Under the pieces are notes generated by a model, which was given only the letters and a program-made list of their open reading frames with translations, had not been told where the DNA came from and did not search any database. 36,252 bases of DNA. Source: a virus (lineage: Duplodnaviria; Caudoviricetes). The DNA is taken from IMG/VR virus record IMGVR_UViG_3300020045_003199, positions 1 through 36,252 of that record. The stretch is one strand, 5' to 3'. Shown here in pieces: positions 1 to 36,247 of this stretch. Every line of letters begins with the position of its first letter. Positions within the stretch are counted from its first letter, which is position 1. Position numbers and translations under genes: made by a program.

Positions 1-121
1 CATGTTATCGTAGGTGCTTGCTTTATTATACGGCACTTTCAACGGTTCCGGATGAATATTTAATACCTACTGAGTATGGTTTTCCTGAAGATTGCCCGTT
101 ACCTAATGAGCAGTAGTATGA
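1..121. repeat. Terminal direct repeat, copy 1 (121 bp), identical to 36132-36252; probably assembly circularisation overlap
   Basis: catgttatcg...cagtagtatga appears base-for-base at both ends of the window. Confidence 0.95.
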
Positions 122-699
122 ACCGTATAAGTCCATATCATATAATCATAGCCGCGTTGCTGGTTATTGTACTGATTCAGTCACAGTGCAAGCCTAAGCC
201 GGTGCCATGCCCTGAAACAAAGATTACTATTGATTCAGTCCTGATCGTTGACACGCTTAAAATCAAAGGAAATACGGTTTACAAGCCTTTGCCGTACAAG
301 GTAATAGATACGTTTGTTTTGCGTACTGAGGTTGACACAAGTAAGATAATAGCGGAATACATCAAACTGCGTAAATATGACCTACCTGTTATGAATGACA
401 GTAACGGAAATGTAAATGTATTCGCTTCGGTTCAGTTCAATAGGATTTCAGATTGGACTTATACGGCTGAATTTTACCCGAAAACAACGATAATTGAAAA
501 GAATCACGTAATAATTGAGAAGCCGCGCAATAGTTTATACGCTGGCTTTGGTATAGGTTATCAGATTGAATCGAATAAGCCTGTTTTTAAGCCTGTAGTT
601 ACACTGATAACTAAAAAGAGTATGATGTATTCAGTTGCTTATGATCCGTTTAACAACGCGCCTGAAATTGGCGTTTCGTGGAAGATCGGACGAAAATAG
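118..699 (+). CDS. Membrane-anchored or lipoprotein of the lysis region (spanin-like candidate)
   Basis: Start moved to ATG 118, just after the stop of the gene at 36062-36247 across the circular junction (ATG 106 is an alternative). N-terminal hydrophobic helix IIIAALLVIVLI followed by QSQC; beta-strand-rich C-terminus ending GVSWKIGRK; last gene before a terminator. Confidence 0.6.
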   Translation: MNRISPYHIIIAALLVIVLIQSQCKPKPVPCPETKITIDSVLIVDTLKIKGNTVYKPLPYKVIDTFVLRTEVDTSKIIAEYIKLRKYDLPVMNDSNGNVNVFASVQFNRISDWTYTAEFYPKTTIIEKNHVIIEKPRNSLYAGFGIGYQIESNKPVFKPVVTLITKKSMMYSVAYDPFNNAPEIGVSWKIGRK

Positions 700-720
700 T
701 TTGCTTGGGTTGAGTTGTGA

Positions 721-764
721 GCGCATACGCCGGGGTTGTGGTTTTCTCCGGCGTTTTGCGTTTC
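721..764 (+). terminator. Hairpin/terminator ending the late operon; 10-nt loop UUGUGGUUUU
   Basis: Stem ACGCCGGGG (727-735)/CTCCGGCGT (746-754), outer GCGCA/TGCGT, then T-rich tail; the G-U pairs form only in + strand RNA. Confidence 0.75.
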
Positions 765-770
765 GGTAAT

Positions 771-1292
771 CTAAACATGATTAACAACACTATTCAATTT
801 ATTCTCATAAGCAAAACTAGCCTCAATCTGAGTATCAAATCCACCAAGATAAAATCTTTCACCATTTATATCTATTTGAGAAACCCATTTTTTGCGTTTT
901 TTATGCCAACAAACACCCGTGTATTTAGACGAATGAGGTATGTGTTTTCTATTTGAATTAACTCTACATGGCACTATTTCTAAATTATTAATATTATTGT
1001 CGGTTATGATAAAATTTTTATGGTTAACTACTAATATATAACCACATGGAGTATGGCTTAGGAATGTTTCACATACAAGTTGATGGATATATTTTGTAAT
1101 CCTTTTTCCTGATTGTTTTAAGTCAACAACATAATACCCATCTTTATTTATTTGCGGCTTCAATAATTTGCCTTTATGAATTCTTTTCCTTCCATCTGAA
1201 TATTTAACTATTCTATCAGTAGATTTTACGTTACCAAAATTACTTACTTGGTATCCACTAAAAATATTTACGTCTTTCCAAATTTCAATCAT
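771..1292 (-). CDS. NUMOD4-HNH-AP2 homing endonuclease
   Basis: EIWKDV..GYQVSNFGNVKS (NUMOD4); HQLVCETF..VNHKN..DNNINNLE (HNH); SKYTGVCWHKKRKKWVSQI..YLGGF..EA..AY (AP2). Confidence 0.9.
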   Translation of the reverse strand: MIEIWKDVNIFSGYQVSNFGNVKSTDRIVKYSDGRKRIHKGKLLKPQINKDGYYVVDLKQSGKRITKYIHQLVCETFLSHTPCGYILVVNHKNFIITDNNINNLEIVPCRVNSNRKHIPHSSKYTGVCWHKKRKKWVSQIDINGERFYLGGFDTQIEASFAYENKLNSVVNHV

Positions 1293-3205: not shown

Positions 3206-3283
3206 TGACATATATCAACCGAAACCACTACAAATCTCAACGGTTACAGAGAACAACGTATATACTTTAACCTTAACTTAGCA
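3206..3283 (+). promoter_or_regulatory. Class-B promoter copy 1: tandem TGA-N6-TCA-like sites plus TAACTTAGCA
   Basis: TGACATATATCA (3206-3217), CTACAAATCTCA (3228-3239), TAACTTAGCA (3274-3283); architecture repeated at 6206 and 12418. Confidence 0.7.
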
Positions 3284-3303
3284 TAAAATTAAAACCACAC
3301 GAA

Positions 3304-3588
3304 ATGACACTAATAGAAGAAATAGAATTTCAAAACGTAGATGGAACCTACTACTACAAAGATGTAGAATTTGAGGCAGAACCATCAGTATGCAACGATT
3401 CAATCGGTTCATATGAATATTGGGGACAGAAGTGTTACGACCATCAGCCGGACTATATCAGCACATCCGATAACGGAGGTACAACCTGGGATGAATCAAT
3501 ATATACCGAATCAGAAAATAAGGTGATTAAAAAGGTTGTAGAAGATTACGTTGATAATAAATTTTGTGAACTATATATTAATAATTAA
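3304..3588 (+). CDS. Acidic hypothetical protein
   Basis: DSIGSYEYWGQK motif; preceded by AAAACCACAC. Confidence 0.75.
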   Translation: MTLIEEIEFQNVDGTYYYKDVEFEAEPSVCNDSIGSYEYWGQKCYDHQPDYISTSDNGGTTWDESIYTESENKVIKKVVEDYVDNKFCELYINN

Positions 3589-3600
3589 ACCACACGAATT

Positions 3601-4068
3601 ATGAAAACCACGAAACAATCAGTAGATTACCTCCGAATGATGGAGGCAGAGAACCCAAGAATCAGGAAAGGTAATGCTAACATACGTCAGTCAGAAATAT
3701 ATGTTTCTGATATAATGGTACTATTCACCAACAGCGGAACCATTCACGACAAAGTTGCAGAACTTCAGCAACACTTCATTGACAAAATAGTAACCTGCGA
3801 TTTCGAGGTTATTAAGTTTGAAGTAAACTATTGCCAGGTTCAAATCGAAGGCCAATACAATTTCAATATCTGGATTGGTAACGGTTCGAAATATTGCAGG
3901 GTTTGGGGTGCAATCGGTGATCAGTTTATGCAGTTACCTGACTTCACAGACGAACAACAGGTAAAAGTATTCGAAGGACTATCCGAACTGTATATCAAAA
4001 ATACCGAATTGATTAAGGCTGAAAAAGTGGCCAGGTTAAAGAAGGAATTAACTGAACTCGAATCGTAA
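3601..4068 (+). CDS. Hypothetical protein
   Basis: 155-aa ORF preceded by AAACCACACGAA. Confidence 0.75.
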   Translation: MKTTKQSVDYLRMMEAENPRIRKGNANIRQSEIYVSDIMVLFTNSGTIHDKVAELQQHFIDKIVTCDFEVIKFEVNYCQVQIEGQYNFNIWIGNGSKYCRVWGAIGDQFMQLPDFTDEQQVKVFEGLSELYIKNTELIKAEKVARLKKELTELES

Positions 4069-4079
4069 AACCACAACAC

Positions 4080-4712
4080 ATGACAAACATAACGAAATTT
4101 GAATCAAATATCGAACTCCTGGTTAAACAGGATAAGATCATGGTTGCACTGAATCAACCGCCCCCGCAGGAATGGGTAAAAATTCATCCGTTCATTAAGG
4201 ACTTTAATTATATCCCGATTGAGCGGGTTGAATGGTTGCTGAAAACCTTTTTCAAGACTTCATATAAAATTGAAGTTATCAAAACAGGAACACTGTTAAA
4301 TGCTATTGAGGTTACTGTAAGGGTACATTACAAGTATGCCGATTCTGAAGAGTGGATGTTTCACGACGGGGTAGGGGCAAAGGAAATACAGACTACAAAG
4401 GGGAGCGGCGGTCTTAACCTGGATTTGTCGAACATTAACAGGGGAGCGGTAGAAATGGCGTTACCGATTGCTAAAACAATAGCGATTAAAGATGCTTGCG
4501 ACCACTTTGGTAAGTTATTCGGTTCGGATCTTAATAGGAAAGTTCAGATCGGATATGCCGAAGATACCAAACTCCAACCGATTGACATTAACAGCGAACT
4601 TTTTAAGAAAATGAAAGAAGCTGTTAAGTCGGGGAGTTACACTATTGAACAGATTGAACGGAAATATTCATTAACACAGGAAGCAAAGGAGGCACTGAAT
4701 GAAACAATTTAA
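4080..4712 (+). CDS. Single-strand annealing protein, Rad52/Sak-like
   Basis: YIPIERVEWLL...HDGVGA...A.TIAIKDA..HFGKLFGSDLNRK; directly upstream of an exonuclease. Confidence 0.7.
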   Translation: MTNITKFESNIELLVKQDKIMVALNQPPPQEWVKIHPFIKDFNYIPIERVEWLLKTFFKTSYKIEVIKTGTLLNAIEVTVRVHYKYADSEEWMFHDGVGAKEIQTTKGSGGLNLDLSNINRGAVEMALPIAKTIAIKDACDHFGKLFGSDLNRKVQIGYAEDTKLQPIDINSELFKKMKEAVKSGSYTIEQIERKYSLTQEAKEALNETI

Positions 4713-5867: not shown

Positions 5868-6208
5868 AAACCTCACACAAAATCCTCCTCACAATCGCAA
5901 TCTTATCAACCTCCGGCGCAATCAGCTACGGAATGAACAGCTGGTTAATATTTCTCGCTTTGCTGTTCTTAGCCGCGTTCCTGTTCTTCCTTTTTTCACT
6001 GTGTTTTATTTCAGCCCGTGCAACTGCAACCGAGGACAGGATAAACCTCGCAGCCTGGCGCGCCGGACTACAATATAAAGACCTGGTTAAAGTAGGAGGC
6101 GTTCAGTATCGTGTTGAATCCAGACACCCTAATAACGTTATTGAACTGTTCCGATATTCCTACGAAAATAAGTTTGTTACGGTTGATGAGTGTTGGCCGG
6201 TGGATTGA
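5864..6208 (+). CDS. Membrane protein with two N-terminal hydrophobic segments
   Basis: ILLTIAIL and WLIFLALLFLAAFLFFLFSLCFI. Confidence 0.7.
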   Translation: MKTSHKILLTIAILSTSGAISYGMNSWLIFLALLFLAAFLFFLFSLCFISARATATEDRINLAAWRAGLQYKDLVKVGGVQYRVESRHPNNVIELFRYSYENKFVTVDECWPVD

Positions 6209-6283
6209 TAAATCTCAACCGAAACACGAGTAAATGTCAGCGGTGAAGTGATACTGGAATTAATTAATTAGAGTAAATTAGCA
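6206..6283 (+). promoter_or_regulatory. Class-B promoter copy 2
   Basis: TGATAAATCTCA (6206-6217), GAGTAAATGTCA (6228-6239), TAAATTAGCA (6274-6283); same 22-nt and 68-nt offsets as copy 1. Confidence 0.7.
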
Positions 6284-7209: not shown

Positions 7210-7502
7210 AATTTGAAACAGAATATCAATTACAACAATTCCGCGAAGTCGAAAAAGAAATGTTTGATGAAAACGGAAAAGCATTTACAGGTAGTAGGAT
7301 TTCCGAAAGACAATCAGAAGAAATGCTAACACTGATTAATTCTCTTGAAACAGAATTAAAAGAAATGCCAAGCAGAGAACAAATACTTCAATTATTGCAG
7401 GATTCATCTCAGCAGTATGGTGAAACATACGAACAAAGAGCAATATTCGATTCAAACTTTGGAGAATTATCAGATGTTATAATAAAACTAATCCAGCATT
7501 AA
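7206..7502 (+). CDS. Hypothetical protein
   Basis: Operonic ORF. Confidence 0.65.
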   Translation: MKFETEYQLQQFREVEKEMFDENGKAFTGSRISERQSEEMLTLINSLETELKEMPSREQILQLLQDSSQQYGETYEQRAIFDSNFGELSDVIIKLIQH

Positions 7503-7512
7503 CACCACACCC

Positions 7513-12417: not shown

Positions 12418-12485
12418 TGACATATATCACTCCAAACCCTCATAAATCTCATTAACATAGTATTGATTTAATTAATAAATTAGCA
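12418..12485 (+). promoter_or_regulatory. Class-B promoter copy 3
   Basis: TGACATATATCA (12418-12429), TCATAAATCTCA (12440-12451), TAAATTAGCA (12476-12485); offsets 22 and 58. Confidence 0.7.
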
Positions 12486-12986: not shown

Positions 12987-13025
12987 CCCAACTCAGATTT
13001 AATTAATAATTTAAAACCACAGAAA

Positions 13026-13196
13026 ATGGCACCACAAATCGCATTAATTGTATTGTTAATAGTTGAATTAGCATTACAGGCACACAAACACGGAAAACCA
13101 AGAGAGGATTATAACTTTTAGACTTGGTTAATTTCAGTATCAATAACTACAACACTCCTTATTTGGGGCGGATTCTTTAACCAATTATTTAAATAA
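13026..13196 (+). pseudogene. Small two-TM phage membrane protein interrupted by an in-frame TAG
   Basis: MAPQIALIVLLIVELALQAHKHGKPREDYNF*TWLISVSITTTLLIWGGFFNQLFK*; TAG at 13119-13121. Confidence 0.7.
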
Positions 13197-19220: not shown

Positions 19221-19233
19221 TAAACCACACAAT

Positions 19234-21440: not shown

Positions 21441-21472
21441 GAGGGGTAGGGTGATACTTACCCCTCTTTTTT
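21441..21472 (+). terminator. Rho-independent terminator after the capsid gene
   Basis: GAGGGGTAGG-gtgata-CTTACCCCTC followed by T6. Confidence 0.9.
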
Positions 21473-21481: not shown

Positions 21482-21494
21482 CTAAAACCACACC

Positions 21495-22061
21495 ATGAAA
21501 GCAGCTGTTATAAACCTCACAACCAGAATAGACCGATTGCACGCAGTCCGCAAACAGTTTGAATCGTTCGGACTAAAAGAATACGACGTATTTCCGGCCT
21601 ACAATTCACCGGATGCACTCCGCGCCAATGCCCGTTCACACATGGAGTTAATTAAAAATGGGTATAATCTAATCTTTGAAGATGATGTTTTCTTTGAGGG
21701 TACAATAGACCAGCTACCGCTATCAGAACTTCCACCCGATTGGGATATATTGTACTTAGGTGGTAATGTTATCGAACCACTTAAAAGGTTTTCAGCTAAC
21801 TTGCACCGATGCACAGCAGCATGGGGTTCATTCGCTATTATGTACAGTCCTTCAGGTTTACAGTATGTTAAGGACTGTTACCGGATTGAACCGTTTACGA
21901 TATATGATGAATGGCTACGGGTAAGAAGTAAGGCCACACTACAAGCCTATATTCTGAGTACACCAATCGCATGGACGCGGGGCGGGTATTCGGATGTTAA
22001 CCATTGTATTGAGAATTACGAACCACAGATGAGGAAGAATGCTAGAGTTAATATTGTATGA
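21495..22061 (+). CDS. Glycosyltransferase, GT25-like
   Basis: INLTTRIDR, RSH, LIFEDD and PPDWDILYLGG. Confidence 0.85.
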   Translation: MKAAVINLTTRIDRLHAVRKQFESFGLKEYDVFPAYNSPDALRANARSHMELIKNGYNLIFEDDVFFEGTIDQLPLSELPPDWDILYLGGNVIEPLKRFSANLHRCTAAWGSFAIMYSPSGLQYVKDCYRIEPFTIYDEWLRVRSKATLQAYILSTPIAWTRGGYSDVNHCIENYEPQMRKNARVNIV

Positions 22062-22888
22062 GGAATATACCTAAGATAGCGCATTTAGTTTGGTTCGGCG
22101 ACCAACACATGCCGTTAATCAACGTATTTACCATTACGACCTTTCACCGATTGAATCCTGACTGGGAAATTAAAGTTTACACTTCGAAGCAAGGTAATAA
22201 AGACTTTGGTACATTGGAGTGGATACCGCCGTATACAGGAAAGGACTATTTCGAACTAATCAGGGCAATGTCATACGTTCAAATTATTGAAGTTGATCTT
22301 AAAGACTTCGATTGTCCTGTTCATGCTCACGTTATTGCAATGACAGACGTATTCAGGCAACAGGTTTTATTCCGTGAAGGTGGTATTTATTCTGACTTTG
22401 ATGTGATATGGTTACGTCCGATGTCGTACTTTACTGAATTGGATTGCATCGGTGATACTTCGGACTTTCAATGTACAGTTAGTTACTTTAAAACTATTGA
22501 CGGGCATCACAACGTATCAAATATAATTGCGGAACCTGGCAGCGAATTTCTGAAATACACTTTATCGAAATGCGCTAACATGCCGCCGCCGTACTCACAT
22601 CAAGCGTTCGGAACTGACTTGTTTAATAAACTATTCCCGTACAAGGAAGATATAGACGCGAAGTTTAACAGGATGTTATTTCTGAAGTATGAGACGTTCT
22701 TTCCGTTCGGGATTTATAACCTGATTGACTTATTCCAGCGACATGATGAAACTCCAGCGTACCAGCCTAATGTAATGGCTGTACATTGGTTCGGTGGGCA
22801 TCCGTTCGCACATGCTTACATTGATAATGACGGGTTTAACAGAAAGTGTGCAATGACAACGATTTTAAAAAGAGAGGGGTTAATATGA
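22058..22888 (+). CDS. Glycosyltransferase, GT32/DXD (OCH1-like)
   Basis: IPKIAHLVWFG, NPDWE, DVFR..VLFREGGIYSDFD and AVHW. Confidence 0.88.
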   Translation: MRNIPKIAHLVWFGDQHMPLINVFTITTFHRLNPDWEIKVYTSKQGNKDFGTLEWIPPYTGKDYFELIRAMSYVQIIEVDLKDFDCPVHAHVIAMTDVFRQQVLFREGGIYSDFDVIWLRPMSYFTELDCIGDTSDFQCTVSYFKTIDGHHNVSNIIAEPGSEFLKYTLSKCANMPPPYSHQAFGTDLFNKLFPYKEDIDAKFNRMLFLKYETFFPFGIYNLIDLFQRHDETPAYQPNVMAVHWFGGHPFAHAYIDNDGFNRKCAMTTILKREGLI

Positions 22889-23850
22889 AAGTACTTTATC
22901 ATTTGCATGCGTATGTTCCTGAGCACAACGCCGGAGCCGAATGGATGGCACACGCTATCTTAAAATGGCTTGTTAAAGAAGGACATGAATGCCATGTAAT
23001 AACTACATGTGAAGCGAACTACGAATATGACGGGGTTAAAGTCTATCAGGATGATTTCGATAACTGTAACCGTGAATGGCGTTGGTGTGATGTCGGATTA
23101 ACGCATTTGGTCCGCGCCGGCAAGGCTTGGAACTGGTCACACGAAGTAAATAAACCGATTGTTTATGTCGTTCACAATACTTTTACTAATCGTTTGGTTG
23201 AAGTAAAGCAGAATTTTGCACTGATATTTAACACTGATTGGGCGAAAGTGGACGCTGTTAATAAGGGTTACAAACATAAAAACATCGTTTTGCATCCGCC
23301 TGTATGGGTTGAAGATTACAAAACAGACCGAAAAGGAGCTGAATATATCACCCTTATTAATTGCTGGGATCGTAAAGGCGGGCATGTACTTGCTGAATTG
23401 GCCCGATTAATGCCAGATCAAAAGTTTCTCGGCGTGCTAGGTGGTTATGGTGAACAGGTGCAAGCTGTATTGCCAAATCTTGAATACATTGAAAACACGC
23501 CGGACATTAAAAGCGTTTACCAGCGTACAAAACTGTTAATCATGCCGTCGGTTTATGAATCATACGGGCGTACAGCGGTTGAGGCTATGTGTTCCGGTAT
23601 TCCTGTAATTGCTTCGGGTACTCCTGGCCTTCGTGAATCATTGGATGATTGCGGTACGTTCTGTTCTGAAGTTTCAGAGCCACATCAGTTGAAGCCGGAA
23701 GAGTTCAAAGAGAAAATTTATCAACTATTTAATGAAACGCTTTACAATGAACTATCTTTGAAGTCTTTGAAACGGGCTGAAGAATTGGAGAAACGAAGCA
23801 TTAAAGAACTTAAAAACCTGGTTAAATGGCTACAAAACTTATCGCACTAA
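22885..23850 (+). CDS. Glycosyltransferase, GT4 (GT-B fold)
   Basis: GAE, RKG and MPSVYESYGRTAVEAMCSGIPVIAS; start reassigned to ATG 22885. Confidence 0.9.
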   Translation: MKVLYHLHAYVPEHNAGAEWMAHAILKWLVKEGHECHVITTCEANYEYDGVKVYQDDFDNCNREWRWCDVGLTHLVRAGKAWNWSHEVNKPIVYVVHNTFTNRLVEVKQNFALIFNTDWAKVDAVNKGYKHKNIVLHPPVWVEDYKTDRKGAEYITLINCWDRKGGHVLAELARLMPDQKFLGVLGGYGEQVQAVLPNLEYIENTPDIKSVYQRTKLLIMPSVYESYGRTAVEAMCSGIPVIASGTPGLRESLDDCGTFCSEVSEPHQLKPEEFKEKIYQLFNETLYNELSLKSLKRAEELEKRSIKELKNLVKWLQNLSH

Positions 23851-35141: not shown

Positions 35142-35372
35142 TTTTAATTCATTTCTCATGCGAGTTCTGAAATCATTGTCAACAGATGGGTTATTAGGAA
35201 CCAATTTACATGGTTCACTTAATGACACTCCGGCACTTTCGCCGATTGCAATGTTATTGTTTTTAGAAACTCCTGATTCTAAACCTACTGATTTTGATTT
35301 ACCCATAATAAAAACCAATCCCGCTAATAATACAATGCGATCCAGTTGCCCAGGTTTGGGTATAGGTTGCAT
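35121..35372 (-). CDS. Possible counter-oriented small gene (moron-like)
   Basis: 83-aa ORF with a hydrophobic stretch; a TATCTTTG element on the minus strand at 35422-35429. Confidence 0.35.
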   Translation of the reverse strand: MQPIPKPGQLDRIVLLAGLVFIMGKSKSVGLESGVSKNNNIAIGESAGVSLSEPCKLVPNNPSVDNDFRTRMRNELKLFLRYF

Positions 35373-35489
35373 ATTAGCGGAATTGGATTTAAGATTTTCA
35401 TTTGTTAACTGAATCGCCTTACAAAGATATATATAAAAATGCGATTTTCGACAAAATGATAAAAATAAATTTAGTACAACACGAACATT

Positions 35490-35702
35490 ATGACCGGATA
35501 TTTTGAAGAATCACCAGGAAACCGATCAATAACGCGCTTAGCGTTCTGGTACGGTATTATTTGGGCGGCTTTGTTTACAACAGCTTTCGCGTTCATTAAA
35601 GATTTGTCGTTCGGGGAGGTTGTCGGAATGTTTACCGGTTTGAGTTCGCCGTTTTTTGCGCTGAAATTGATACAGAAGAATATAGAAAATAAAAATCAGT
35701 AG
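35490..35702 (+). CDS. Holin-like two-TM protein
   Basis: SITRL followed by two hydrophobic helices and a basic tail KLIQKNIENK. Confidence 0.65.
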   Translation: MTGYFEESPGNRSITRLAFWYGIIWAALFTTAFAFIKDLSFGEVVGMFTGLSSPFFALKLIQKNIENKNQ

Positions 35703-35705
35703 GAT

Positions 35706-36059
35706 ATGAACAACATCGAATCAGGGTTATTTAAGTTTGGCCTTTGGGCTTTTGGTATTATGTTTTCAGCTATATTTTTAATGGTATCTTTGACTTATAA
35801 AAGTCAGTTAGATACGGCTGATTTTTTAAGAAACCATGCAATAACACAAAGCCAAACAGAAGAATATACAATTAGGCGGTTATCCGTTGATTCAGTTAAC
35901 ATAATTAAACTACAATCAGAAAATTATGATTTAAAAATGTGTATTAAAAGAATATCACCTGAAGTTTACAAAAGTATTTTTTTAGATACTTTTGAAGCAT
36001 TTTACCCGAAACAGGAAGCAATTTTACCAGAAGAAAAATATCATTTAAAACCTGAATAG
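35706..36059 (+). CDS. N-terminal TM plus coiled-coil protein (lysis region)
   Basis: FGLWAFGIMFSAIFLMVSL, then a helical region. Confidence 0.6.
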   Translation: MNNIESGLFKFGLWAFGIMFSAIFLMVSLTYKSQLDTADFLRNHAITQSQTEEYTIRRLSVDSVNIIKLQSENYDLKMCIKRISPEVYKSIFLDTFEAFYPKQEAILPEEKYHLKPE

Positions 36060-36061
36060 TT

Positions 36062-36247
36062 ATGGCAAAATTAACGAGAGAATTAGAATCAGAAGCAGGA
36101 AATAAAAATGCAAATCCTGTTTATTGCACTGCATGTTATCGTAGGTGCTTGCTTTATTATACGGCACTTTCAACGGTTCCGGATGAATATTTAATACCTA
36201 CTGAGTATGGTTTTCCTGAAGATTGCCCGTTACCTAATGAGCAGTAG
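36062..36247 (+). CDS. Small Cys-containing hypothetical protein
   Basis: CTAC..RC...FPEDCPLP. Confidence 0.6.
   Translation: MAKLTRELESEAGNKNANPVYCTACYRRCLLYYTALSTVPDEYLIPTEYGFPEDCPLPNEQ

Follow-up and report, generated by a model that had tools for sequence, protein, structure and literature searches.

The window analysed here is a stretch of 36,252 nt that makes up a whole circular phage genome, with a terminal overlap of ~120 nt and direct terminal repeats. Nearly all of its genes lie on the + strand, and its genes specify a head of the HK97 type and a long-tail module, together with a primase-helicase and an exonuclease. No integrase, classical repressor or antirepressor was matched among the 62 window proteins, and in this complete genome neither PHROGs nor Pfam recognised an endolysin in the cassette at the lysis position (35158-36247, 76-699). 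Capsid relatives in cultured phage records are only ~30% identical. Sites of the form TAnnTTTG, the Bacteroidota -7 promoter consensus, are found upstream of the terminase, portal and glycosyltransferase genes. The start regions of the window are devoid of Shine-Dalgarno motifs and show A at -14 to -11, preceded by T at -16/-15. Flavobacterium johnsoniae start regions also have A at -14 to -11, and an A run at these positions is reported to promote initiation in Bacteroidota (PMC6847099). Because of this start-region pattern and the TAnnTTTG sites, we infer that the host is likely a member of the Bacteroidota.

A hairpin at the end of the late genes

The element studied here opens with the stop codon (697-699) of the last late-region ORF and continues through a G/U-rich tract into a GC stem with a 10-nt loop and an interrupted U run (Table 1). 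Five phages carry it: the window and four relatives, designated G001, G002, G006 and G009 (contig L004 has the element of G001). In the window, a lower stem is added by pairing of 719-725 with 757-763. Folding of 717-770 gives -25.0 kcal/mol (z -4.2) on the + strand versus -16.9 kcal/mol on the - strand, in agreement with an earlier sequence-only reading of this DNA that had assigned a hairpin with an antisense loop to the + strand. The U run of the window is poor and a terminator scan did not call the hairpin, its 10-nt loop exceeding the 8-nt limit of the scan; GC stem and U run are both present in the four relatives. No Bacteroidota -7 promoter (TAnnTTTG) was found within 250 nt upstream of the element in any of the five carriers, and the element sits between a stop codon and a terminator-type hairpin with no visible promoter of its own. 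By inspection, the window loop contains no U-turn motif (YUNR), and the 5' tract of the window has no 8-nt match to any of the 66 start regions of this genome. We also considered an ORF that would begin within the hairpin on the minus strand, and rejected it on the grounds that its ATG (724-726) is not conserved in the relatives.

Table 1. Coordinates of the hairpin element, its neighbours and the start-site tags in the window
Feature	Position	Strand	Remarks
Last late-region ORF, phrog_25644	76-699	+	First ATG 76; membrane/lysis-cassette protein predicted by position
G/U-rich 3' tract	700-726	+	Partly paired as lower stem in the window
Terminator-type GC stem	727-754	+	727-735 pairs with 746-754
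10-nt loop UUGUGGUUUU, predicted seed	736-745	+	Identical in G002 and G006; core GUGGUU in 5/5 carriers
Interrupted U run	754-763	+	UUUUGCG in the window; 4-8 consecutive U in relatives
HNH endonuclease gene	771-1292	-	Converges on the hairpin; not located here in the other four carriers
Tag before ATG 3304 (ORF without known function)	3291-3299	+	First gene after the second early promoter region
Tag before ATG 3601 (early ORF without known function) and second AAAACCAC	3587-3611	+	Second copy just inside the gene, at 3604
11-nt perfect site before ATG 4080	4067-4077	+	Exact match to 735-745; best predicted target
Weaker variant site before ATG 7513	7502-7510	+	Rank 7/66, -7.8 kcal/mol
Tag before ATG 13026	13013-13021	+	Small membrane-type ORF, phrog_5479, early stop
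Tag before ATG 19234	19222-19229	+	84-aa ORF in head module
Tag before ATG 21495	21484-21492	+	Occupies most of the short glycosyltransferase-operon leader

Start-site tags complementary to the loop

The 8-mer AAACCACA occurs seven times in the window, a number reached in none of 100 shuffles (mean 2.1). Its sole minus-strand copy is the hairpin loop (737-744), while all six + strand copies (3292, 3587, 4068, 13014, 19222 and 21485) begin 10-14 nt before an ATG (3304, 3601, 4080, 13026, 19234 and 21495, respectively). The sequence-only reading had placed the motif upstream of six ATGs. All six copies indeed stand at starts, but the numbers it listed as ATGs are positions of the motif. The 11-nt perfect match that it reported at 4067 proved exact, whereas its inventory of the motif was incomplete, the second AAAACCAC having been overlooked. 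As for the weaker variants it had proposed, the site before 7513 ranks well (7/66) but those before 11045 and 13203 fall outside the best 9 of 66.

The gene at 4080 encodes a putative single-strand-annealing recombinase and adjoins a RecE-like exonuclease; it has no Pfam match, and a Rad52/Rad22 lead appears on 11% of one Atlas cluster. The gene at 21495 is the first of three glycosyltransferase genes, and the leader of this operon lies behind a terminator and a TAnnTTTG promoter-like site (21474). Homologues of 21495 in other loci (16 matches, several from the same records) and homologues of 19234 (4 matches) are without the tag, and the tag therefore appears to have been gained in this lineage at unrelated genes. 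As regards these genes themselves, the three glycosyltransferase genes (21495-23850) lie between the major capsid gene and the head-tail adaptor and are kept in capsid relatives; their products could modify the virion or the host surface. In ORF 13026-13196 there is a stop at codon 32, after which the frame runs for 24 further codons to a second stop, so that it would be either a broken gene or the product of an assembly error.

Column-wise shuffling of 55 hand-picked start regions brought this 8-mer to six occurrences in 0 of 20,000 trials, and any 8-mer to six in 1 of 3,000. AAACCACA is the commonest 8-mer of the window start regions. Among 151 terminator-like hairpins from the window and its relatives, the window loop matches the largest number of its own start regions (six; 129 hairpins match none), and complementarity of the loop to the top start-region 8-mer was seen in only 1 of the 151. 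We also counted the tag in 151 Bacteroidota genomes (514 Mb), which represent the phylum of a Bacteroidetes bin and may not include the true host: AAAACCACA followed by ATG occurs 771 times, as against 638 for the reversed control. This corresponds to a density of ~1.5 per Mb (control 1.2) versus 111 per Mb in the window, and the highest value for any sampled genome is 4.7 per Mb. In phages, the tag 8-mer is present in 6/66 start regions of the window, 1/49 of G002 and 2/49 of G006, and in 1 of 1,804 start regions left after de-duplication of 87 related phage loci. Because automatic start calling mis-picks some ATGs, the counts on related phages admitted as many as three ATGs for each ORF, and G009 belongs to the background in the 1,804-region count and to the carriers in the 1,747-region background counts given below.

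As far as the sampled genomes go, then, the tag is not a general host habit, which is the explanation that the sequence-only reading had set against its own proposal. The A run is the generic part of the tag, and CCAC is its specific part. It appears highly improbable to us that the tag is nothing but a generic initiation preference of the host, or a DNA-level site such as an operator, a Chi-like site or a cassette junction, with no RNA-RNA pairing involved. TAAAAC is the commonest start-region word in the window, as a generic preference would have it, and two neighbouring sites share 12 nt as if duplicated; against this stand the near-control level in the 151 genomes and the single occurrence among 1,804 phage start regions, and, for a DNA-level site, the fixed strand and ATG distance. 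The three copies situated in intergenic spacers of <15 nt likewise point to RNA, and the likely operators are other repeats (at 3206, 6206 and 12418).

These repeats merit a description of their own. A 39-nt intergenic sequence is present in three copies (3206-3244, 6206-6244 and 12418-12456), which contain imperfect TGA-N6-TCA palindromes and stand before early operons; it also occurs in G001 and G002, and the copies are likely operator/promoter elements. The palindrome GTATATAC, at 1686-1693 and 3258-3265, overlaps both early promoter regions. G002 and G006 each have two copies in the corresponding regions and G001 has one; the palindrome possibly serves as a repressor site. A small ORF (2268-2540) has weak ribbon-helix-helix leads (Atlas scores < 0.9), and its occurrence among viral contigs is nearly confined to four of the five carriers of the element; it is a candidate repressor for the repeats just described.

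The element and its cognate sites in related phages

Carriers were collected from protein scans, pattern scans and a terminator survey of 802 hairpins; the stem-loop pattern scan returned 10 stretches, namely 4 real ones and 6 in GC-rich unrelated DNA. In the four relatives the same unit, composed of stop codon, G/U tract, GC stem, GUGGUU loop and U run, follows the last late gene. The element measures 60-69 nt in the five carriers, and in the relatives the tract is single-stranded and consists of 83-94% G+U. The loop is UUGUGGUUUU in the window, G002 and G006 and AGUGGUUAA in G001 (and L004) and G009. The upstream genes belong to three unrelated families, and the loop type is independent of the upstream family. 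ORF 76-699 of the window has a homologue in G009 (32%) and shows no relationship to the genes ending the late region in G001, G002 and G006; relatives of this ORF numbered none by protein scan and two by BLAST in related phage records. The stems differ among carriers but pair in 40/45 cells. Covariation in the stem is modest, with 2/9 pairs changed on both sides in five sequences from which the structure was itself derived. Between the window and G002, the loop is identical at 10/10 positions while the fourfold-degenerate sites of gene 4080 agree at only 16/59, which suggests that the loop identity reflects selection, with the caveat that these are mosaic genomes whose parts have local histories.

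Two related loci show what is found where the element is missing. The closely related G008, which is 89% complete and has 23 proteins in common, ends its late region with the same gene but has neither hairpin nor tag, and in L220 the lysis genes end in an ordinary two-way terminator and no start carries the tag. A separate observation on L220, which is without the element, is a hairpin at L220:11190-11235 with nearly the stem of the window's element, preceded by AACCACAC and situated directly upstream of a gene; this contig is placed in a bin labelled Berkiella, probably through a binning error. In G009 (L332:9611-10018) the element faces a convergent integrase fragment and not an early promoter.

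Wider searches added no carrier. The exact 24-nt hairpin had 0 matches in viral contigs, and the tract-plus-loop pattern gave 119 loci from 46/64 parts of the viral contigs, one of them real and already known. The pattern search in metagenome contigs returned 89 matches with no convincing terminator. A covariance model built from the five elements (R1) detected no new carrier in 88 + 24 loci or 5 further records, and in the 151 bacterial genomes it gave 2 weak matches, both without the loop. BLAST against 50,697 cultured phage records produced one chance match.

G002 and G006, which had not been used for discovery, allowed the loop and the tag to be compared independently of the window. In these two phages 3/98 start regions match all 10 loop bases. 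Permuted loops did as well in 3/120 cases, all of them shifts of the same word, and the full match is absent from background phage start regions (0/1,747). In G001 and G009, which have the other loop, 0/126 start regions match UUGUGGUUUU even at 8 nt. At 8 nt, the count for G002 and G006 is not unusual, with 24/120 permutations as good. One site, that before 3304, is homologous in the window, G002 and G006; it lies at the head of the second early operon and precedes three unrelated genes. All five carriers are mosaic relatives, and since G002 and G006 share a near-identical element and one homologous site, the independent evidence comes to ~2-3 sites. The AGUGGUUAA loop covaries only weakly with start regions: matches of at least 7 nt were seen in 3/69 start regions of G001 (53/1,680 permutations as good) and in 0/57 of G009, whose record is without recombination genes, and pooling of the two gave 168/1,680 permutations. 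The covariation of loop and start-site motif that the sequence-only reading had proposed as a check is thus seen for the identical loop of G002 and G006 and is weak for AGUGGUUAA. The best site of G001 is only a 6-mer, and the same 6-mer precedes a gene in the non-carrier G008; AAACACC directly before an ATG is found in G001 too.

When accessibility was included, the top-ranked loop target (1/66 start regions in the window, 1/49 in G002, 1/49 in G006 and 1/69 in G001) was, in 4/4 carriers holding the recombination operon, either the recombinase-like gene itself or the gene that opens this operon. The predicted duplexes are of -8 to -11 kcal/mol and 8-11 bp, they are A/U-rich, and their formation requires partial opening of the 10-nt loop; for Bacteroides sRNAs, a need for extended seeds has been suggested (PMC7366714).

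The composition of the tract raises the question of whether the G/U-rich tail instead acts as a broad antisense on A/C-rich start regions belonging to the host or to rival phages, with the match to own genes as a secondary, lineage-specific trait. The high G+U content and single-stranded state of the tract in the four relatives would suit such a role, as would its 8-nt matches to 2-8% of background start regions and the invariance of the GUGGUU core even in G009, where own targets are few. The complement of the loop, however, is depleted in background start regions (1/1,747 at 9 nt versus a permutation mean of 4.3) and rare in bacterial genomes, and we regard this possibility as quite unlikely.

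Units of another kind came to our attention in distant Bacteroidota-type phages (L073:7540-7610; L072:7400-7470; L011:3230-3310; L068, L069, L070, L075, L077, L078, L045, L042, L067). They consist of a promoter-like TAnnTTT(G/A) site, a short tract and a GC terminator, are mostly located at the late/early junction, and contain in the tract the complement of a generic start region plus AUGAAA. The ATG on the opposite strand opens only short, non-conserved ORFs, and neither Rfam nor FopS matches were obtained for these units, which are likely stand-alone anti-start sRNA genes. In L058:4860-4960, L059:3955 and L060:2322, the loop of a terminator hairpin is complementary to a stretch ~30 nt upstream, just before an ATG; the arrangement resembles that of an attenuator, or of a site on which an antisense RNA acts.

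Proposed action and relation to known RNAs

In summary, the comparisons demonstrate the complementarity, its restriction to start regions, the conservation of the loop behind unrelated genes and the co-occurrence of loop and tag, and at the level of sequence the feature is real, non-random and partly conserved. On balance it seems probable to us, if with considerable doubt, that the hairpin loop at the 3' end of the late transcript pairs with start regions of the phage's own genes and lowers their translation. The hairpin would terminate the late (lysis) transcript. Because no promoter of its own is visible, the RNA would exist either as the late mRNA's 3' end, left intact, or as a processing product of ~60-70 nt; in either form it would act on early mRNAs in trans and accumulate late, once late transcription is under way. 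The loop is predicted to pair at ~-14 to -3 of six start codons and the duplex would cover the A run at -14 to -11, the expected outcome being repression, that is, less initiation on recombination and accessory genes. Extension of the helix may be permitted by the weak closing pairs of the window element and, in G002 and G006, by a bulge beneath the 4-bp inner stem. As the predictions point repeatedly to the recombination operon, the element would most simply serve as a late feedback brake on recombination and accessory genes, and the glycosyltransferase operon and one head-module gene would have joined the target set in this genome. The multi-target antisense RNA from a 3' end that the sequence-only reading envisaged is thereby partly borne out, in that the loop is conserved while stem and upstream gene change and the tag is found almost only together with this loop.

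A simpler account would hold that the hairpin is an intrinsic terminator only, that the tag is a site for an RNA-binding protein of phage or host or a translation enhancer of this lineage's host, and that the loop match is a leftover or a coincidence. Such an account leaves unexplained why a long loop is kept at 10/10 positions while neutral sites are saturated, why this loop should be the complement of the top start-region 8-mer, and why tag and loop are jointly absent from G008; nor does any sampled genome approach the tag density of the window. Still, the A run of the tag coincides with a generic Bacteroidota determinant (PMC6847099), ACA motifs are described as enhancing translation by themselves (PMC3879156), the real host may be missing from the 151 genomes, and G009 has the element without cognate sites. 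We consider this account unlikely.

Pairing of the loop with start regions in trans, the reading we prefer, has several parallels among known RNAs, although the element itself belongs to no described family that we could detect. Rfam gave no family at the gathering score for the element and nothing relevant up to E 10, c4 models included. None of the five carrier records passed the FopS model (RF04319, 56-bit cut-off), and relaxing the search to E 1 brought no hit to the element; the positive control from B. thetaiotaomicron was detected in this search. The element nevertheless resembles FopS and GibS of Bacteroides thetaiotaomicron, which are reported as RNAs of ~65-70 nt with a single-stranded 5' stretch and an intrinsic terminator that pair with several mRNA initiation regions, as is predicted here, in a phylum without Shine-Dalgarno use (PMC11697453, PMC7366714). 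One FopS copy (FopS-14) is reported to be 3'-derived, and a FopS sequence has been found in a phage (PMC11697453). The seed of FopS and GibS is described as the 5' single strand and most of these RNAs as having their own sigma-ABfr promoter, and binding by RbpB and repression of target mRNAs are further traits of FopS. In the element, by contrast, it is the terminator loop that holds the specific match, a promoter of that kind is not seen, and the targets would be the phage's own genes.

GcvB of enterobacteria is an independently transcribed chromosomal sRNA that needs Hfq and has a G/U-rich seed. It is reported to repress multiple targets by masking ACA-containing enhancers upstream of the start (PMC3879156). 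The element similarly has an accessible G/U-rich seed complementary to C/A-rich elements upstream of several starts; it differs in that its predicted targets are phage genes, and there is no sequence match. [quoted passage not shown] In icaR, too, the regulatory sequence is in the mRNA 3' end and the intact mRNA may act, through 3'-5' UTR pairing, but icaR is reported to act in cis on its own Shine-Dalgarno region, whereas the conserved sites of the element are on other transcripts (PMC3868564).

By the icaR precedent (PMC3868564), the loop could pair within its own transcript with the sites of 19234 and 21495, 2/6 sites being upstream in the late region. The distance of 14-17 kb between these sites and the 3' end, the terminator at 21441 that intervenes for the first of them, and the location of the conserved sites in early operons downstream of the hairpin speak against this. 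The minus strand, which folds with the sense motif in its loop, might alternatively provide a decoy upon read-through from the HNH gene, but in the relatives the U run is confined to the + side and the HNH gene is not found at this place. We judge both of these variants to be very unlikely.

Lastly, the P1/P7 c4 RNA (RF01695) and the P4 CI RNA are phage RNAs that act in trans through short complementarity, as is proposed here for the element (PMC8546580). The c4 RNA is reported to repress one antirepressor operon, to maintain lysogeny and to be processed from its own operon (PMC8546580), whereas the element ends a late operon and its sites are dispersed over six unlinked or early genes. The likeness to c4 and CI drawn in the sequence-only reading did not extend beyond that of a trans-acting phage antisense, there being no Rfam match, no Bacteroidota -7 promoter within 250 nt upstream and no integrase or classical repressor matched among the 62 proteins. 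By analogy, the best reading is that the element works like GcvB, GibS or FopS rather than like c4 or CI. We found no published description of such an RNA in a Bacteroidota phage in literature listings, in which few subscription papers were covered.

More tentatively, and as a possibility rather than an expectation, the terminator may double as a multi-target antisense regulator for which no additional gene is required. The phage would recruit any gene into a regulon shut off late by means of a CCAC tag behind the A run, which takes the place of a Shine-Dalgarno sequence for Bacteroidota ribosomes, and such elements may represent a wide class of RNA tails directed against start sites among phages of the Bacteroidota. 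If true, a phage of a phylum without Shine-Dalgarno use would time its genes post-transcriptionally and without recourse to a regulator protein, recombination and accessory genes being switched down by the end of its lysis mRNA. The 10-nt loop and the 9-nt tag would make a small module for probing which signals at -14 to -4 are read by Bacteroidota ribosomes, and possibly also a compact means of knock-down in these bacteria.
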